DNA from: Candidatus Eiseniibacteriota bacterium
GTDB lineage: Bacteria; Arandabacterota; Arandabacteria; Arandabacterales; Arandabacteraceae
Reading direction: 5' to 3'
DNA: 64,000 nucleotides
Assembly: GCA_043808325.1 (NCBI GenBank)
Contig: JAZDEY010000031.1
Coordinates: forward strand, 10,997 to 74,996
Shown: positions 3,791 to 11,630 of the stretch, in pieces
Layout of the letters: each line of letters opens with the position of its first letter
Position numbering within the stretch: the stretch's first letter is position 1
The notes under the pieces: model-generated
Database searches by the model: none
Seen by the model: only the letters and a program-made list of their open reading frames with translations
Told to the model about the DNA's origin: nothing
Made by a program: the position numbers and the translations under genes

Positions 3791-4033
3791 TTGTTTGAGC
3801 CTCCTGCGACCACCGGCGACTGGGTCACCAACCACCAAAACGTGATCGTCACTGGCCCCACCGGCTGCGGCAAGACCTTTGTGGCCTGCGCCCTCGCACA
3901 CAAGGCGTGTCGGCAGGGCCATCGGGCCATCTACTTCTATGCACCCAAACTCTTCCGCAGCCTTACCCTCGCTCAGGCTGACGGCAGCCTACCCAGCCTC
4001 CTTAAGAAGATCGCCAACACCTCTACCTCCGTC
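3791..4033 (+). pseudogene. istB: Truncated IS21-family IstB (transposition helper ATPase) fragment. Only the Walker-A region survives; downstream ORF sequence is low-complexity and non-homologous.
   Basis: 'NVIVTGPTGCGKTFVACALAHKACRQGHRAIYFYAPKLFRSLTLAQADGSLPSLLKKIA' matches the IstB Walker-A/ATPase core. The N-terminal ~100 aa and C-terminal half are absent. The translation turns into S/T/P-rich low complexity after ~aa 80. Confidence 0.6.
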
Positions 4034-4276
4034 CTCGCCGTCCCTGCCAAATCCACCGCTTCCATCACCAACTCCCATCTCGCCCTGCACTCTAAACTAT
4101 CCTCGGTTCACTGTCTCACCATTATTGGCAGAGAGGGTCAGCAGGAAGCTATCACCTGCGGAGTCATAGGCAAGACGGGCTGCCTCATTGCGTCAACCTT
4201 GAACCGTGATGCTTCAGGCAGACCTCGGGGTCACATCCAACGCCCTATCACCTCGAGTGCGGTGACGCTCTGTTGC

Positions 4277-5269
4277 TCAGACTCTCCCGGATAAGTATCT
4301 CGCCATAAGGGGGAGCATTCGATTGAGGTTCCCTATCGTTCCCCCACGTTTGTCAGCTCTCCCCCCGAATTCTATGGGAAGATAGGTCTTCCAGACATCG
4401 AGCTCGAAATCATCCTCATCAGTAGCTTCGCTACCCACAAAGCTACTCAACAAGCGCCCCGTATCCTTGTCCTCGAAGAGGTGGTACAAGTCTGGGTGTT
4501 CCGAGATGAGGCCGCGCACTACCGACGGATAAGTTAGGAGGAACTGCCTGAGTCCATAGAAGTTCCTGTGAATGTGACCCTGCAGATTAGACTGGCCCAG
4601 AGCCCGGTCATAGACTACATCTGCTGCCTCTTCGGGTTGCTGCTGAAGCCATGTCTTGAAAGCTTCGTAGTCACCAAAACGGGGATTCATATCACGAGAA
4701 ACCTGAGGAATCCGGTCTTCCTGTGATACCGGTAGTTGTCTCCTCCTGCGCTCCCGCTGGTATCGCCGAACGCCAGCCCGGTGCTTCCGAACGTAATCGG
4801 AGAGTTCATCAAGGGTAGTGGCTCTCAGCCCCACTCTATAACCATCAAGCGCCTTCCTAAGCCGCTCCACCACTCTGAGGGATTTCGTCCGTTGGATGAC
4901 CTCATCCCCGCCACCAAAACCCCGAACGGAGAAATTGGAGCTTCCTACGAGCGCTTGAGCACTGCCTATGTAGACCTTTGCGTGTGCCAACGGACTGGTG
5001 TAGAGACTGACTCTGGTTCCAGCCTCTAAACAGCCCTGGAGCATCTCGAGAAGTGCGTCCGGAGCCACCAGCCCCTTCTTCCATTCATCTGGTGAGTCCA
5101 AGTCAAGTCTGCACATGAAGTTGAACCGTGCAGGCGTGAATCTTACTTTAGAGAATGCCCCTGTAGAGTAGAACCCGGTTGCGAAGTCGAGCCGTCCTCC
5201 GTCGAGCCCAATCCGTTCAAGGTCAAGAAAGGTGGGCCCCGCTATCAGGTCAAAGTCCCTCAGCCTCAT
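4277..5269 (-). CDS. PLD-superfamily (single HKD-like motif) protein, putative nuclease. The C-terminal ~200 aa are uncharacterised.
   Basis: HKD-like motif 'HAKVYIGSAQALVGSSNF' (HxK...GSxN) near the N-terminus. ATG at 5269 preceded by GGAGG 7 nt upstream on the minus strand. Divergent from the MTase gene. Confidence 0.55.
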   Translation of the reverse strand: MRLRDFDLIAGPTFLDLERIGLDGGRLDFATGFYSTGAFSKVRFTPARFNFMCRLDLDSPDEWKKGLVAPDALLEMLQGCLEAGTRVSLYTSPLAHAKVYIGSAQALVGSSNFSVRGFGGGDEVIQRTKSLRVVERLRKALDGYRVGLRATTLDELSDYVRKHRAGVRRYQRERRRRQLPVSQEDRIPQVSRDMNPRFGDYEAFKTWLQQQPEEAADVVYDRALGQSNLQGHIHRNFYGLRQFLLTYPSVVRGLISEHPDLYHLFEDKDTGRLLSSFVGSEATDEDDFELDVWKTYLPIEFGGRADKRGGTIGNLNRMLPLMARYLSGRV

Positions 5270-5480
5270 CTGGAACCTCCTCGAGAATCAACAGACAGCA
5301 TAAGCCTGCTATCGCCTGCTCACGCCTGAGTATATTCCAGCCTCCTCCCCACATCAACCCCGCCCCGCTGGTCTGGTCGTCAGTCCAGAATGAGATATTG
5401 CAGTCTCGGGCACAATGGAATACTATCTGCGTGACTTGTGTGGGATGAACGTGGCTTCTGCTTAGGGCTATGGTGACACC

Positions 5481-8321
5481 TTGTTCAGAGAAGAGGTAAT
5501 AAACGTCAAGATGGCAGAGCTCCTCTGCGATTACGGTCTTGACGCCATTCCCGAGACGATTACTCCACATAAGAAGCTGCCGGACGTCAGCATTCTGGTG
5601 CGAGGCACAAAGCTAATCCTTGAAGGTAGGAAAGCCTCTCAGAGAGCTCAGCTTGAGAAAGACGCCAAGGGCAGGATTGAGCAGGGATTGTGTGACATCA
5701 GTATGGCGATTGTGTATCACCCCGAGCTTTATGCCTGCACAACGACCGAGAAGCTGGCAGATAGCCTAAGAGTCTATTCCTACGGGGGTCGTCTCTTCTA
5801 TCAGACGAAGGAGGGAATCAAGCAAGAAACGCTTGCCGGGGTGGACATCGAGACTCTTGTAGCGTCGATTAATGCCGGGGTGAGCCTGCTTGTGGACAGT
5901 GACGTCCTCGCGGCGACAGTCGATGAAGTAAAGGGCAAATTGGAGCAGATAGTCGAGTATGCCTCGGCTGGCAGCTTCTGGTTCGACGAGACAGTAATCG
6001 CACGCCTTAAGGAAGCTCTCGGGCTTGAGGAAGAAGATGAAACAGAGAAATTCAAGAAAGACCTTATAAGGATAGCTATGTTCGTTCTGTTTGACGGGAT
6101 GGTCTTTCATGAGATGATAGCCAACTGCCGCATCAAGGTGGACTCGCTCACCCTTTGCTCAGAATCGCAAAAGCTATTCTTCGATGATGAGTGGAAAAGG
6201 ATTCTGAAGATAAACTATGAACCAATATTCAATCTCGCGTTCTGCATCCTCAGTGCGCTTCCAACGGGTAGCCCGGAAACCGAGAGTCTGCTGAAGAACT
6301 TGCGAGAACTGGCACTTCGAACCGTGGCGACAGGCATCCTCCGAAAACACGACTTCATGGGAAGGATATACCACAAGCTTCTGCTCAAGACCACGGGGAA
6401 GTATTACGCCACCAATTACACGGCAGTTCCGTCTGCCTACCTGTTGGCCTATCTGCTCTACAAGACTCCCAGCGACAGTCTGCCCCTGTCGAGCATGAGA
6501 GACTTGAAGGCAATGAGGATTATAGACCCGGCCTGTGGCTCGGGGACTCTGCTGTCAGCGAGCTATGTAGCGCTGAGAGACATTTATGCATGCGTGCTCA
6601 CGGCAGATGAGTTACCTGACTTTCACAAGACCCTTCTGCAGAAGACCATCTATGGATGGGATGTCCTGGACTATGCAACCCATCTGACGCTGACCGTTTT
6701 GGGGCTTCACAGCACACCCACCTTGGTCAGGAAGACCAATATGACCACGCTCGCCAATGGCGCCGATGATACGGGCACTTACTTGGGCAGCCTCTCATAC
6801 TTGAATCTTCACGCATCCCTTAAGGGGAAGACATGGGTGAAGCCTTCGAAGACCCAGTCTATGGACAAGGTGACCCAGACCTATAAGCCGATGAACATAC
6901 CACCGGGCACATTCAACGTAGTCATAATGAATCCGCCTTTCTCGAGGAGCGCTAAGCCGAACTGCAAGTTCGGATACAAGTCAGAGGTCATCAAGAAGAG
7001 GATGGCCGCAGAGCTGGCGAAAATCCTCGTCTACAGTGGACTGGATGGAACTGGCCAAGCGGGTCTAGGAGCCCCGTTCATCGGCCTCGCAGACAACCTC
7101 TTGAAGCCGGGCGGGCGATTAGGTGTCGTAATACCTCGTGCCATTCTGTCAGGTGTCTCATGGAAGAAAATCCGGGATCTCCTCCACAAAGACTACGAGA
7201 TTAGATACATAATCTCGAACCATGACCCTGGAGACCGGGCAAGTGGCGTGGAGCCCTGGAACTGGAGTGAGGATACTGACTTGGGCGAGGTTATGATTAT
7301 CGCTGAGAAGACCACTAAGCTTCCGGCAGACAGAGAAACGGTTTACGTCAACCTCTGGAACAAACCAAGAAATGAAGTTGACTCGATACTTATATCTCAT
7401 CAGATTGTTTCGAAGCGCCCCGAGGGACTCCTCAGCGAAGGCGTGTTTGAGACTTTGAAGATGAAGCGGGATGTGGAAGTGGGCACTTTCTACAGACTCC
7501 GGCAATCGGAGCTTGCTGATGGCTGGCTCGCTCCTTGCTTGTTTGCCAACCCCAGCCTTAACAGATTCACGATGGAGCTGAGGCAGATGTTGCCGACTGC
7601 CGGCATCCACGGCCTTCTGAAGACCTGGAGCTCAATGAACAAGACAGGTCCTGTGCGGTGCTTTGACGGTGTTGATATCAAGCAAGTGAAAACCGCCTTC
7701 GAGCAAACCTCGGTGCAAACAGAGTTCCCTATCCTGTGGGGGCAACAGTCGGCAATGAATCGGCTCTATCTCGGTGAGGATTTCATCGGATATGGCAGGG
7801 CCAAGTCTGCCGATTCCGCTCGATTGCACGAGATTAACAAGTCCTCGTTTATCCTATCTGAGCGGCCTCATCTTCATAATGATGCTCTGATAGCTTTCAG
7901 GACAGCAAGAGCGGTGCTCACTACGGCGTTCTGGGAGCTTGGGTTTCGAGATGCTGAGATAGAGCCTCTAATGCTCCTATGGTTTAATTCCACCTTCGGG
8001 TTGCTCCTATACCTGTCAGCCTCTACGAGCAGCATGGGCGAGATTTTCAAGACCAAGAAGGCCCAGATGAGCCTCATGAGGGTTATTGACCCTGGTAAGC
8101 TCAAGGAAGGGGCCTCCGTCAGGAGCGCCGAGTTATTCAAGGCTATCAATGAGAGGGAGTTCAGGGCGTTTCCCGAAGAGTTCGCGCTCGCTGCAAAGGG
8201 CGAGGGTCTAAGGGCCGAGGTTGACAAGTTCTTTAGCGACGAGCTCGAGCTTGCTTATGACTTAAGGCCATACTACGAGATGTTGGCAAACGAGCCCGCA
8301 CTGACACTCAAGCGCCTCTGA
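5481..8321 (+). CDS. Large gamma-class N6-adenine DNA methyltransferase fusion protein. Candidate single-chain Type IIG/IIL (MmeI-like) restriction-modification enzyme: N-terminal putative nuclease region, central MTase, C-terminal target-recognition region.
   Basis: SAM-binding motif I 'IIDPACGSGTLL' (~aa 355) and catalytic motif IV 'VIMNPPFSRS' (~aa 485). Order I then IV with ~130 aa spacing is typical of the gamma class. Size (946 aa) and domain order parallel MmeI/BpuSI-type enzymes. N-terminal 'LPDVSILVRGTKLILEGRK' is a possible degenerate PD-(D/E)xK. TTG start at 5481, alternative ATG at 5511. Confidence 0.6.
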   Translation: MFREEVINVKMAELLCDYGLDAIPETITPHKKLPDVSILVRGTKLILEGRKASQRAQLEKDAKGRIEQGLCDISMAIVYHPELYACTTTEKLADSLRVYSYGGRLFYQTKEGIKQETLAGVDIETLVASINAGVSLLVDSDVLAATVDEVKGKLEQIVEYASAGSFWFDETVIARLKEALGLEEEDETEKFKKDLIRIAMFVLFDGMVFHEMIANCRIKVDSLTLCSESQKLFFDDEWKRILKINYEPIFNLAFCILSALPTGSPETESLLKNLRELALRTVATGILRKHDFMGRIYHKLLLKTTGKYYATNYTAVPSAYLLAYLLYKTPSDSLPLSSMRDLKAMRIIDPACGSGTLLSASYVALRDIYACVLTADELPDFHKTLLQKTIYGWDVLDYATHLTLTVLGLHSTPTLVRKTNMTTLANGADDTGTYLGSLSYLNLHASLKGKTWVKPSKTQSMDKVTQTYKPMNIPPGTFNVVIMNPPFSRSAKPNCKFGYKSEVIKKRMAAELAKILVYSGLDGTGQAGLGAPFIGLADNLLKPGGRLGVVIPRAILSGVSWKKIRDLLHKDYEIRYIISNHDPGDRASGVEPWNWSEDTDLGEVMIIAEKTTKLPADRETVYVNLWNKPRNEVDSILISHQIVSKRPEGLLSEGVFETLKMKRDVEVGTFYRLRQSELADGWLAPCLFANPSLNRFTMELRQMLPTAGIHGLLKTWSSMNKTGPVRCFDGVDIKQVKTAFEQTSVQTEFPILWGQQSAMNRLYLGEDFIGYGRAKSADSARLHEINKSSFILSERPHLHNDALIAFRTARAVLTTAFWELGFRDAEIEPLMLLWFNSTFGLLLYLSASTSSMGEIFKTKKAQMSLMRVIDPGKLKEGASVRSAELFKAINEREFRAFPEEFALAAKGEGLRAEVDKFFSDELELAYDLRPYYEMLANEPALTLKRL

Positions 8322-8822: not shown

Positions 8823-11630
8823 GTGGTGCTCTCTCATGGGATGGTTGCCACCAGTTCGAACTCCACCACTGGTTGTATTGCGTCCACGGCATCGGCATGC
8901 CTGAGGAGGCAGGGGAAATCCGAGGATGCCCTGGCCCTCCTCGAGGGGCTGATCCCTTCGTTCGAGGGCCGCGGGAGACGCGACCTACTTGCCGAGAAGG
9001 CCACGCTACTTTGTCTTGTCGGTAGGTACGGCGAGGCCGGGGATATCTGTGAGATGGTTCAGCGGGAGGAATCCGTCAGTGAGCGCTGCAAGGATGCCGG
9101 TGTGTATCTCGTCCTCGGCCACGTCCTTTCGAGGCTCTGCAAGTGGAAGCAGGCAATTGCTTGTCTGGAGCATGCGGCCACTTTCGCCAGGATGTCCGGC
9201 GATGCAAGTGCTCTGGGGAACGCTCTCAACAATCTTGGAATCGTTTACAAGAATCTGTGCAGATTTGATGACTCGGCAAGGTTACTGCGGCGGGCAGTAC
9301 GGGTAGCTCGGCGCACGCGTGACGATGCGAGTCTTTCAGTGCGGCTCCTCAATCTCGCCACAACCCTCTTTAAGCAGGGTGAGATCCAAGAGGCCGATAG
9401 CGCAGTTTCCGAATGCATCAAGATCTCGTCGCTTCTCAGTCTTAGACGGACCCAGAGTCTGGCGACGATATGCAGGGCAAGGATTGAGAAGGTGCGGGGC
9501 AGGCTTGGGGAGGCGGTTAGCCTGCTCAAGCGGGTGATAGCTGAAGCCCAGTCGCTTGACGAGCCGAGAGTGGGGCTCCTGGCAGAGGAAACCCTGGGGG
9601 AAGTTCTCTGCGAACAGGGTGACCTCTCCCAGGCTCGGCGAGTGCTTGAAGAGTGTCTCGGGAAGGTCCCCGAGCATGCCAAGGACCTAGAGGCCGAAAT
9701 CAAGTGCCGGCTTGCGGAAGTCTATCTGGCGCTGGGGACGAAAGACCGGGCACGACGCTGCGGCACCGAGGCCCTGAAAGTTGCCGAGTCCACTGGTGAT
9801 CTCTATGAGGCCGCCAGGTGTCTTCGCGTGCTGGCGGGGACCGCGGCAACCCCGGCGGACGCAGCGAAGCTGCTTTCCAAGGCCGATCATACCTTCGCCC
9901 AAATGGGAGCCAGGCTGGAGCGCGCTCTGACTCTTGAGGCAAGGGCCGCCTTGGCCGGAGTCTTTGAGTCGACCCGGGCCAAGACGGTGGAAGAGGCCAT
10001 ATCGGTGCTTGAGATCTGCTGCGCTCACGGCAGATTGACGCGCGCCCTTTGTCTGGCAGCTTCGATCTATCTGGACGAGGGGCGGGATCATGACGCCATG
10101 ATGTCGCTCAAGAAAGCCGAGGACCTGGCAGGCGAGTCCACGCTCAAGCGCGCGGTCTCACAGGTGCGCGTGAAGCTCGACCGGCGCCTGTCAGAGAAAC
10201 TGGTGTGGCCTGCGGAGGCAGGCCTGGCTACCGCGCAAGAGGCCTTCGCTTTTCTGCGCACGAGGCTGGGTGCGACCGGCTTGATCCTGGGAAAACCGAG
10301 TGAGGATGGACCTCCCGAAGTGGTCACCGCCCTGGGGATAGATCCGGAGACCGCCGTCGGGTTGCTCAAAGCTGTCTCCGCGCGTGGTCCGGGTCCGGTG
10401 GTCTCGACCAACGTGACCGATCTGGCCCCCACTCTTGGGGCTCGCCCCGCCTTAAGGTCGCTCCTGGGCGTCAGCCTCGGCGCCGGCGCCTCAGATGCCC
10501 TCTGCTTGACATGCTGGCCGTCGGGCGGCAAACTGGGCCTTCATTCGGAAATCTCGTATCTCGTCGAGGCATATTATGAGATCCTCCGGCTCGCGCCTGT
10601 TCTTGAGCGAGCCATGTTGCCCGGTCGCGAATGCGTGGTGCCGATCTGCCTGGGTGGCATTCTGACTGCCGATCGGCGGCTGAAGGAAATCCTGTTGTCG
10701 CTTGCGAAGATCGCACGCACACGCGCCAACGTACTCGTCACCGGCGAGACCGGGACCGGCAAAGAGCTGGTAGCTCGAGTCATTCATGCCCTGAGCCCAA
10801 GGAAGCGTGAGCCTTTCGTCGTGCAGAACTGCGCCGCCTTGCCTGAGAGCCTCCTGGAGAGTGAGCTCTTTGGATACCGTCAGGGAGCTTTTACCGATGC
10901 CCGGACCGAAAAGCGTGGTCTCTTGGAGACCGCGAGCGGGGGTACCTTCTTTCTCGATGAGATCGGAGACATCTCTGCGTCGACACAGGCCAAGATGCTC
11001 AGGGCGATCGAGAGTGGAGAGATCAGGCGGCTCGGGGACACAGTGGCTCGTCCCGTAGATGTTCGTTTCATAAGTGCCACCAACAAGCAACTCGAGCAGG
11101 AGGTGGAGCGGGGGCAGTTCCGCCGCGACCTCTACTACAGACTGAATGTTGTCGCGCTCGCACTTCCACCCTTGAGGGACCGAAGAGGCGACATCGCTCT
11201 TCTGGCCAGGCTTTTCCTCAAACGCCTGGAAGGGCGGGGACGTAAGTGCTCCCTTCGGATTGATCCCGGGGCCATGCGCGCTCTCGCCAATTACACCTGG
11301 CCCGGCAACGTGAGGCAGCTTGAGAATGAGATCCAGCGGGCGGTCGCCATCCTTGGCTCCGATGATGTCGTCGGCGTGGGCTCACTCTCCCCATCGGTCA
11401 CCGGGCACGGGATCGGCGGCCAGGTGACCACCCTGAAGGATGAGGTTCGCCTTGTCGAGCGGTCGCGGATTCTTAGCGTGCTTGAGAGGTGTGCTTGGAA
11501 CAAGACCCATGCCGCCAAGATGCTCGGCGACCTCAGCCGTCCGGCCCTGATCGGCAAGATGAAGCGGCTTGGGATCCCGCTTGCCAGGCCTGACGCTCAG
11601 GGGCAGCGGCTCTCGCCTCTCGGCGGCTAG
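8823..11630 (+). CDS. Sigma-54-dependent transcriptional activator (bacterial enhancer-binding protein) with a long N-terminal TPR-like sensory region and a C-terminal Fis-type HTH.
   Basis: AAA+ sigma54-interaction domain: Walker A 'VTGETGTGKELVARVIH', 'GYRQGAFTDA' (GAFTGA variant), 'GTFFLDEIGD', 'RRDLYYRLNV', 'WPGNVRQLENEI'. C-terminal HTH 'HAAKMLGDLSRPALIGKMKRLGI'. Exact start uncertain (8823 or downstream). Confidence 0.85.
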   Translation: MVLSHGMVATSSNSTTGCIASTASACLRRQGKSEDALALLEGLIPSFEGRGRRDLLAEKATLLCLVGRYGEAGDICEMVQREESVSERCKDAGVYLVLGHVLSRLCKWKQAIACLEHAATFARMSGDASALGNALNNLGIVYKNLCRFDDSARLLRRAVRVARRTRDDASLSVRLLNLATTLFKQGEIQEADSAVSECIKISSLLSLRRTQSLATICRARIEKVRGRLGEAVSLLKRVIAEAQSLDEPRVGLLAEETLGEVLCEQGDLSQARRVLEECLGKVPEHAKDLEAEIKCRLAEVYLALGTKDRARRCGTEALKVAESTGDLYEAARCLRVLAGTAATPADAAKLLSKADHTFAQMGARLERALTLEARAALAGVFESTRAKTVEEAISVLEICCAHGRLTRALCLAASIYLDEGRDHDAMMSLKKAEDLAGESTLKRAVSQVRVKLDRRLSEKLVWPAEAGLATAQEAFAFLRTRLGATGLILGKPSEDGPPEVVTALGIDPETAVGLLKAVSARGPGPVVSTNVTDLAPTLGARPALRSLLGVSLGAGASDALCLTCWPSGGKLGLHSEISYLVEAYYEILRLAPVLERAMLPGRECVVPICLGGILTADRRLKEILLSLAKIARTRANVLVTGETGTGKELVARVIHALSPRKREPFVVQNCAALPESLLESELFGYRQGAFTDARTEKRGLLETASGGTFFLDEIGDISASTQAKMLRAIESGEIRRLGDTVARPVDVRFISATNKQLEQEVERGQFRRDLYYRLNVVALALPPLRDRRGDIALLARLFLKRLEGRGRKCSLRIDPGAMRALANYTWPGNVRQLENEIQRAVAILGSDDVVGVGSLSPSVTGHGIGGQVTTLKDEVRLVERSRILSVLERCAWNKTHAAKMLGDLSRPALIGKMKRLGIPLARPDAQGQRLSPLGG

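Follow-up and report, generated by a model that had tools for sequence, protein, structure and literature searches.

What role does a small phospholipase D (PLD) family protein play when it is encoded beside a DNA methyltransferase: is it a restriction nuclease, a companion of one, or an enzyme of another kind? The question is raised by the gene at positions 4277-5269 (minus strand) of a stretch of 64,000 nucleotides, hereafter the window, of contig JAZDEY010000031.1 (positions 10,997 to 74,996; assembly GCA_043808325.1) of Candidatus Eiseniibacteriota bacterium. A first-pass annotation, made from the sequence alone, had proposed a single-HKD PLD protein acting as a restriction nuclease or a companion defence effector; the predicted fold, the co-localisation with methyltransferase genes and the single HKD motif all support this proposal. 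Judging from sequence comparisons and structural models, the most likely role of the protein is that of a nuclease effector linked to methylation-based discrimination, in a restriction-like phage defence. The elements of the gene are the following.

4277..5269, minus strand: PLD gene (ATG start), encoding a 330-residue two-domain protein, nuclease domain plus helical C-domain
4820..5269, minus strand: PLD-fold catalytic domain, residues ~1-150, from Foldseek against the PDB; alpha/beta in the model
4931..4984, minus strand: single HKD-type motif HAKVYIGSAQALVGSSNF, residues 96-113, with Ser103 at the Asp position
4901..4903, minus strand: codon of Glu123, an invariant alignment column
4688..4819, minus strand: basic helical linker, residues ~151-194 (helix 153-176 in the model)
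4280..4687, minus strand: conserved helical core of the C-domain, residues ~195-330, with 23 of the 35 invariant family columns
4538-4579, minus strand: C-domain motif GHIHRNFYGLRQFL
4397-4426, minus strand: C-domain motif ATDEDDFELD, residues 282-291 (A282 and E285 invariant)
4307-4345, minus strand: C-domain motif GGTIGNLNRMLPL

The open reading frame (ORF) is genuine and intact. A Shine-Dalgarno sequence (GGAGG) lies about 7 nt 5' of the start codon, and 122 full-length homologs were retrieved (E-values from 1e-43 to 1e-100), nearly all of them 315-345 residues long; an identical protein is recorded from a Candidatus Eisenbacteria metagenome-assembled genome (MAG). An alignment of 43 sequences revealed 35 invariant columns, 23 of which fall in the C-terminal half, and the window protein retains all 35 of these residues. 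The AlphaFold2 model obtained with the family alignment as input has a pLDDT of 96.2 and a pTM of 0.92.

The relation to Nuc/BfiI-type PLD nucleases suggested by the first-pass annotation was borne out by the fold. A Foldseek search of the PDB with the PLD model returned 30 matches at E<=1e-3, all belonging by name to the PLD superfamily except for five TrmBL2 chains (ranks 8, 10, 21, 25 and 26); the top matches were SauUSI (7clg, 1.8e-6), NgoAVII (4rct, 1.8e-5), PLD4, BfiI (2c1l, 2.3e-4), NucT and Zucchini, with a Foldseek probability of 1.0 for each of SauUSI, NgoAVII and BfiI. In sequence searches of the PDB neither the protein on its own nor the 43-sequence profile reached a significant match (NucT at E=0.63); therefore, the PLD relationship is visible there by fold comparison only. 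Among the family members, the Pfam model PLDc_2 matches all 43 at E<=1 (best 2.5e-7), with distant members exceeding its cutoff, and RE_NgoFVII, the PLD domain of the NgoFVII restriction enzyme, matches 37 of the 43 weakly (E<=1).

The HKD-like motif is as first described, with its acidic position replaced, and its His and Lys are invariant: H96, K98, G109, S110, N112 and E123 are shared by the 43 aligned homologs. We take the spacing of the invariant His, Lys, Ser, Asn and Glu to be almost that of H94, K96, S109, N111 and E122 in Salmonella Nuc; Glu123 presumably occupies the place of the Nuc glutamate that supports the catalytic His. The Asp position varies within the family (S, H, R, N, A, D or G), and in Nuc-type enzymes this Asp is structural, not catalytic. 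On the model, then, the N-terminal domain has the fold of a PLD nuclease with one HKD motif, its His/Lys/Ser/Asn/Glu set being intact, and it is followed by a linker rich in basic residues (12 Lys/Arg within residues 151-195).

The rest of the protein had initially been described as about 200 residues without a recognisable domain, ending in an acidic C-terminal stretch. The former statement holds for Pfam, which matched the C-terminal part of neither the window protein nor any of the 43 members, but a conserved helical domain is present in this region and carries the 23 invariant columns. Similarly, the acidic stretch ATDEDDFELD does exist, but it is not a tail; it is a conserved motif inside the C-domain, with the family consensus A-x-D/N-E-x-x-F. 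A separate model of residues 150-330 is all-helical (pLDDT 92) and retrieved no match with Foldseek from the PDB (best E=5.2) or from BFVD. The invariant polar and aromatic residues of the C-domain are R222, H232, R241, Q242, Y262, E285, W293, Y296 and N314.

When 1.84 billion cluster representatives were searched exhaustively with the C-terminal half (phmmer), 69 clusters were retrieved, nearly all of which have the PLD plus C-domain layout, including a distant subgroup with about 30% identity. There are two exceptions. In P0288 the C-domain is N-terminal and is followed by 220 residues without an assigned domain. The P0269 family comprises eight proteins of 285-302 residues (P0269 and P0297-P0303) in which the C-domain, at about residues 5-148, is followed by an HNH_2 nuclease; the identity of the C-domain in this family is indicated by hhalign (probability 98.5%, E=1.9e-15), and hmmsearch with the family profile found all eight at E-values from 1e-11 to 6e-21. 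The closest relatives of the HNH half of P0269 are SRA-HNH proteins of about 292 residues, many of them annotated as 'putative restriction endonuclease' and none with the C-domain. SRA-HNH enzymes are modification-dependent type IV enzymes, and the C-domain takes the position of their reader domain in the eight HNH_2 proteins, which are of equal length; the window protein differs from them in having a PLD instead of an HNH domain and in the reversed order, with the nuclease domain first. The C-domain is thus a conserved helical module without detectable relatives, portable between nucleases. Since it fills the SRA slot and pairs with two nuclease chemistries, we infer that it may be a targeting module joined to a nuclease effector.

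The second line of evidence comes from gene context, which was surveyed at 28 distinct loci with usable flanks (indicated below by L and a number). A DNA amino-methyltransferase is encoded within the gene cluster at 27 of the 28, so that the PLD family shows a near-obligate linkage to DNA methyltransferase clusters. The co-localisation with methyltransferases proposed at the outset is therefore confirmed, but it is not specific to one partner; indeed, the commonest context is an SNF2 helicase with type III-like Mod and Res proteins. According to the partner, the loci can be arranged as follows.

Group A, 13 loci: SNF2 helicase (missing in L001 and L007), PLD, type III-like Mod of ~1086 residues and Res of ~1071 residues
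Group B, five loci (the window, L004, L010, L026/27 and L041): PLD and the window-type methyltransferase
Group C, seven loci: type III-like Mod of ~650 residues
Group D1, one locus type (L013/L015): PLD, N6_N4 methyltransferase of 929 residues and PglZ protein
Group D2, L011: OLD-type ATPase, UvrD helicase, 232-residue ORF, PLD and N6_N4 methyltransferase
Cut locus, L039/L040: Res, PLD, DUF4062 and Schlafen-type ATPase, on a contig that stops where a Mod gene might lie

In group A the PADLOC matches were DrmD PDLC02619 for the SNF2 protein (E=2.8e-201), PDLC03646 for Mod and PDLC03654 for Res. In L002 and L006 the PLD and Mod genes share 4 nt; in L016 and L017 the PLD gene is placed between Mod and Res, and in L012 it follows Mod, on a contig ending before any Res. 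Between the SNF2 and PLD genes of L006 (9597-9920) there are fragments similar to the N-terminus of Mod (71% over 58 residues) and to the C-terminus of SNF2, suggesting a scar left by recombination within the operon.

The recurrence of the PLD gene with the same methyltransferase family as in the window was verified at four further sequenced loci, the other members of group B. The orientation of the two genes is divergent in the window, convergent in L004 and L026/27, and tandem in L010 and L041; identities range from 40 to 55% for the PLD proteins and from 37 to 57% for the methyltransferases, and the pairwise divergences of the two proteins are correlated with r=0.58 (10 pairs from five loci). 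Contigs of identical length in both homolog lists suggest five further candidate pairings of this type.

As for group C, the complete set of helicase, DUF4391 protein, PLD, Mod and Res is found on P0004's contig and in L025, and in both the DUF4391 gene sits between the helicase and PLD genes (L025 1695-2450, Pfam E=3.6e-68); at the level of titles and abstracts, a literature search found no paper joining DUF4391 with restriction and a helicase. RE_endonuc was shown on the Res of L025 only. The gene order in L019 and L020 is Mod, an unclassified ORF and PLD.

Each of the two remaining arrangements recalls a further defence system. The BREX-like trio of group D1 occupies 3089-6767 in L013 and 1120-6860 in L015, and other BREX genes were not recognised on the contig; in L011 (5541-12982) an OLD-type ABC ATPase/TOPRIM and UvrD pair, directly 5' of the PLD and methyltransferase genes, resembles Gabija. 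Proteins with different partner types are intermingled in the neighbour-joining tree of the PLD family; therefore, the PLD gene moved between systems.

The family is rare: of 185,579 representative species genomes four encode it, all of them MAGs (Rariloculaceae, Terriglobales, Elusimicrobia and one unclassified bacterium), and it is present on 25 JGI metagenome contigs; no homologs were found on IMG/VR viral contigs or PLSDB plasmids.

The partner in the window is encoded on the opposite strand, and the head-to-head arrangement was noticed from the beginning.

5270..5480, no strand: divergent intergenic region of 211 bp between the PLD and methyltransferase genes
5481..8321, plus strand: partner gene (TTG start), 946 residues, with an N-domain, a gamma-class N6-adenine methyltransferase and a C-terminal region
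5481..6080, plus strand: partner N-domain, ~200 residues, with a PD-(D/E)xK-like motif; a separate overlapping gene in some homologs

Pfam assigned Eco57I (5e-8) and N6_Mtase (1.7e-7) to this protein, which carries motif I (DPACGSGTLL, 6525-6554) and NPPF (6930-6941); the C-terminal region, where no domain was detected, is taken by its position to be the target recognition domain (TRD). The first-pass annotation had called it an MmeI-like fusion methyltransferase. With regard to the layout this is correct, as the partner shares with MmeI-type (IIL/IIG) enzymes a PD..ExK-like N-domain, a gamma N6A methyltransferase with NPPF, a C-terminal region and a length of about 950 residues. With regard to the domains themselves, however, only MmeI_Mtase was matched, and below its cutoff (26.7 bits against 27, over 68 residues); the partner has no Pfam match to the MmeI N, helical, TRD and C domains, the Lys of the N-domain is not conserved, and in many homologs the N-domain is a separate gene. 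Against the defence libraries (PADLOC and NCBIfam) the best matches were MAD2, PglX and type IIG, all far under their cutoffs. Membership in MADS and BREX was rejected, the MAD2 and PglX matches being weak (49 bits against a 720-bit cutoff).

The partner family has at least 344 members, either fused, with about 950 residues, or lacking the first 200 residues, with about 750; the latter form makes up about half of the best 120 partner homologs. In L004 (7468-8070), L010 (7010-7726) and L041 (298-918) the N-domain is encoded by a gene of its own, upstream of the methyltransferase gene and overlapping it, so the separation is a recurrent gene fission or fusion. The motif of the N-domain is P34-D35-x12-E48-G-R50 (residues 34-51, nt 5580-5633), and N8, P34, D35, G42, E48, R65 and Y79 are invariant. 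The order of its elements, judged by eye on the sequence, seems to resemble the alpha-beta-beta-beta-alpha-beta order of PD-(D/E)xK nucleases, and the N-domain profile gave weak PDB matches at the motif to Hjc, AF1548 and ST1444 (E from 0.3 to 1.3). Pfam searches with 19 members returned no consistent family and no nuclease family. Moreover, 9 of 53 homologs have a Lys at the 'Lys' position, as against 31 with Arg and 13 with Trp, which is odd for an active PD-(D/E)xK nuclease. The change from Lys to Arg was considered as a marker of the partnership with the PLD protein and was rejected, since R is also present in the PLD-less L038 and in most of the family.

One PLD-less homolog of the partner, in L037 (6811-15255), lies in a dense defence island together with an EVE-domain protein, an EcoRII-like enzyme and a C5 methyltransferase. 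The same island includes a protein labelled NmeDI_C by precomputed annotation, a label that the Pfam scan did not reproduce.

As to the surroundings of the gene pair in the window, the AT-rich islet noted at first inspection is real, with a G+C content of 0.49-0.55 across about 4.0-9.0 kb and of 0.60-0.65 in both flanks. At its left edge the remains of an insertion sequence (IS) are found.

3812..4021, plus strand: fragment of an IS21 IstB ATPase (Pfam IstB_IS21, E=1.1e-17)

This fragment spans profile positions 85-154 of 238 only, in an ORF (3791-4294) adjoining the PLD gene at its 3' end, and neither IstA nor further IS parts were recognised near it. No tRNA genes or flanking repeats were found at the islet borders. 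A promoter and terminator scan gave as many sites as expected by chance, among them one sigma-70-like site on the minus strand of the intergenic region (5357-5329). A tblastn search of the whole window with SNF2, Mod and Res probes gave no match. Directly to the right of the islet (8823-11630, plus strand) there is a gene for a 935-residue sigma-54 activator with a long N-terminal TPR region, apparently unrelated.

How does this family compare with the systems already described? The closest analogies are with the accessory PLD nucleases of methylation-based defence. Like the PLD family, DrmC of DISARM is a small PLD-superfamily nuclease in methylation-based defence operons with SNF2/DrmD-like helicases, and an accessory-effector role is plausible for both; DpdK of Dpd and the HKD domain of some BrxL proteins (BREX) are further comparable accessory PLD nucleases. 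The PADLOC and NCBIfam scan of the PLD protein yielded nothing above threshold: the DrmC profile reached E=0.068 over 25 residues, and DpdK matched the HKD core alone (PADLOC 1.4e-4; NCBIfam 18.2 bits against a 100-bit cutoff), so that neither assignment holds. DrmC has an N-terminal four-helix bundle (YprA preprint, 10.1101/2025.09.15.676423); the PLD family, in contrast, has a C-terminal helical domain of about 135 residues without a fold match. As to the other genes, no helicase/DUF1998 ORF is on the ORF list for 1-12 kb of the window (Pfam on four ORFs; DrmA and DrmB profiles were not run), and DUF1998 is absent from the L002 SNF2, the L002 Res, the L025 Res and the L025 helicase fragment in four full scans. 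DrmA and DrmB are, by definition, the core of DISARM. MANTIS/Gao_RL was rejected as an assignment, its architecture being different in the parts of the source consulted; the same applies to the HKD-bearing BREX-related systems.

The PLD restriction enzymes share other properties with the window protein. BfiI and NgoAVII have the same single-HKD N-terminal PLD domain, the same two-domain layout and separately encoded methyltransferases. Their C-terminal domain is a B3-like beta-barrel reading a specific sequence, whereas that of the window protein is all-alpha and unmatched in the PDB; a role of this domain in sequence specificity is unlikely, as it is all-alpha and highly conserved across loci with differing methyltransferases. 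SauUSI, which heads the structural matches of the PLD domain, is an ATP-dependent, modification-dependent type IV enzyme made up of PLD, helicase and SRA-like domains. The shared logic is that of a PLD nuclease with a recognition module, but the SauUSI chains have 838 and 806 residues, helicase included, while the window protein has 330 and no helicase, and the identity is about 15%. NucT is a single-domain protein of 158-162 residues, without the extra domain of the window protein, and matches at the fold level only; with regard to Nuc/NucT-type secretion, the N-terminus of the window protein has no obvious signal sequence, by eye only, no signal-peptide tool having been run. Hence, the family can be likened to accessory PLD nucleases and to PLD restriction enzymes, yet it is a member of none of them. 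The statement that a PLD nuclease with an MmeI-like methyltransferase is an undescribed architecture agrees with the literature searches: among the matches listed, titles and abstracts describe neither such a combination, nor any type IIG-like enzyme with a PLD nuclease partner, nor the C-domain.

Within the general proposal of a nuclease effector, we tentatively favour, at slightly less than even odds, a partner-agnostic co-effector, i.e., a second nuclease beside methyltransferase systems and not a sequence-specific enzyme, because one conserved protein accompanies at least four unrelated methyltransferase architectures, at least one of which (L025) has its own Res nuclease. In this scheme two copies of the PLD protein would dimerise to form one active site, as in other one-HKD PLD nucleases, and DNA would be cut without metal, with a phospho-histidine as covalent intermediate. 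Delivery or licensing of the nuclease would fall to the C-domain, which could either read a feature of the DNA or dock on the methyltransferase complex, and DNA without the mark of the neighbouring methyltransferase would be degraded. The version in the window would represent a minimal module, consisting of the PLD gene and a single N-domain/methyltransferase/TRD gene on a low-G+C islet by an IS remnant.

Several observations speak against assigning such a function to the protein. The HKD Asp is missing from the window protein, which has Ser103 instead, and its PLDc_2 match (24.4 bits, E=2.7e-5) is under the 27-bit cutoff. DrmC, the analogous protein of DISARM, is reportedly dispensable for defence against the phages tested. 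Partner homologs occur without a PLD gene in all three sampled long contigs (fused forms, 41-47% identity to the window partner); therefore, the methyltransferase family is not dependent on the PLD protein. Lastly, no feature common to beta-class and gamma-class systems that the C-domain could recognise is evident.

The alternative that stays closest to the original idea of a restriction nuclease is that of a restriction-modification system with two or three components, in which the PLD protein would be the R subunit and the only restriction endonuclease, the partner would only methylate and recognise DNA, and the N-domain of the partner would be inactive. The unconserved 'Lys' of the N-domain (R, W and K, as counted above) and its failure to match any Pfam nuclease family would fit this, as would the absence of RE_endonuc from the type A Res of L002 in the Pfam scan and the divergent, convergent or tandem orientation of the two genes, such variation being usual for R and M genes under separate regulation. 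A PLD-less methyltransferase homolog next to the protein labelled NmeDI_C in the precomputed annotation would fit as well. On the other hand, the fused methyltransferase homologs in L036 and L038 have no recognisable nuclease neighbour, the N-domain keeps N8, D35, E48, R65 and Y79 invariant together with its PD-(D/E)xK-like order by eye and its weak Hjc-type matches, and the PLD protein of L025 coexists with a Res bearing RE_endonuc, so the family is not generally the sole nuclease. We consider this alternative unlikely, although worth keeping in view. A similarly guarded judgement, that of a doubtful candidate, applies to a type IV-like, modification-dependent nuclease whose C-domain would recognise a base modification or some unusual state of the DNA and which would provide a complementary layer against phages with modified DNA. 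The position of the C-domain ahead of HNH_2 in eight proteins whose nuclease relatives are SRA-HNH enzymes points in this direction, and so does the rank of SauUSI among the structural matches; moreover, the invariant polar and aromatic residues may resemble a ligand pocket rather than a protein interface. Nevertheless, the translational coupling with Mod and the placement inside Mod/Res operons suggest a single machine and not an independent layer, and a context-independent reader of m6A or m4C beside an amino-methyltransferase would attack the host DNA. A broader and decidedly speculative possibility is that the C-domain represents a new portable recognition module linking interchangeable nucleases (PLD, HNH) to DNA amino-methyltransferase systems of any kind. 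The link could be made by sensing the methylation state of DNA regardless of sequence (m6A/m4C, unmethylated or hemimethylated), or by docking onto the conserved catalytic core of the methyltransferase.

Two further explanations would deny the protein a part in defence at this locus. According to one of them, the gene is a decaying remnant of a larger SNF2/Mod/Res system, moved by an IS beside an unrelated methyltransferase and now functionless. The IstB fragment adjoining its 3' end, the lack of SNF2, Mod or Res homologs in the window and the low-G+C islet carrying the gene pair could be read in this way, whereas the full-length ORF with all 35 invariant residues, the good Shine-Dalgarno sequence and the same pairing in L004, L010, L026/27 and L041 make it very improbable. 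According to the other, the protein is a lipid or small-molecule phosphodiesterase (a PLD similar to cardiolipin or phosphatidylserine synthases) with no role on DNA. Phosphatidylserine synthases and PLD2 do appear lower among the fold matches, and one JGI homolog is automatically annotated as cardiolipin synthase-like; however, lipid PLDs such as cardiolipin synthase are expected to have two HKDs per chain, and the second one, which the first-pass annotation had indicated as the mark of a lipid enzyme, was not found in the protein, the second half of which is not a PLD fold but all-alpha. Furthermore, nucleases head the list of fold matches and RE_NgoFVII matches most of the family, the gene context across all informative loci consists of methyltransferases, helicases and Res genes, no feature of a membrane or lipid enzyme was found, and the N-terminal sequence is not hydrophobic by eye, with no signal-peptide or membrane-segment prediction run. 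This explanation can hardly be maintained.

As for the wider meaning of such an effector, what PLD nucleases contribute to the DISARM, Dpd and BREX variants in which they are repeatedly found is poorly understood, and the family described here offers a clean handle on this question; the window holds a minimal two-gene version, directly clonable and testable. If the C-domain were merely structural, the family would be a modest addition to the known PLD restriction nucleases. If it is a reader or an adaptor, this would account for the recruitment of accessory nucleases in methylation-based defence, and the known DNA-recognition folds would be joined by one that has no known relative. If, finally, the portable module were real, the family would be a generic plug-in nuclease for methylation-based immunity, possibly with a new class of DNA-modification readers.

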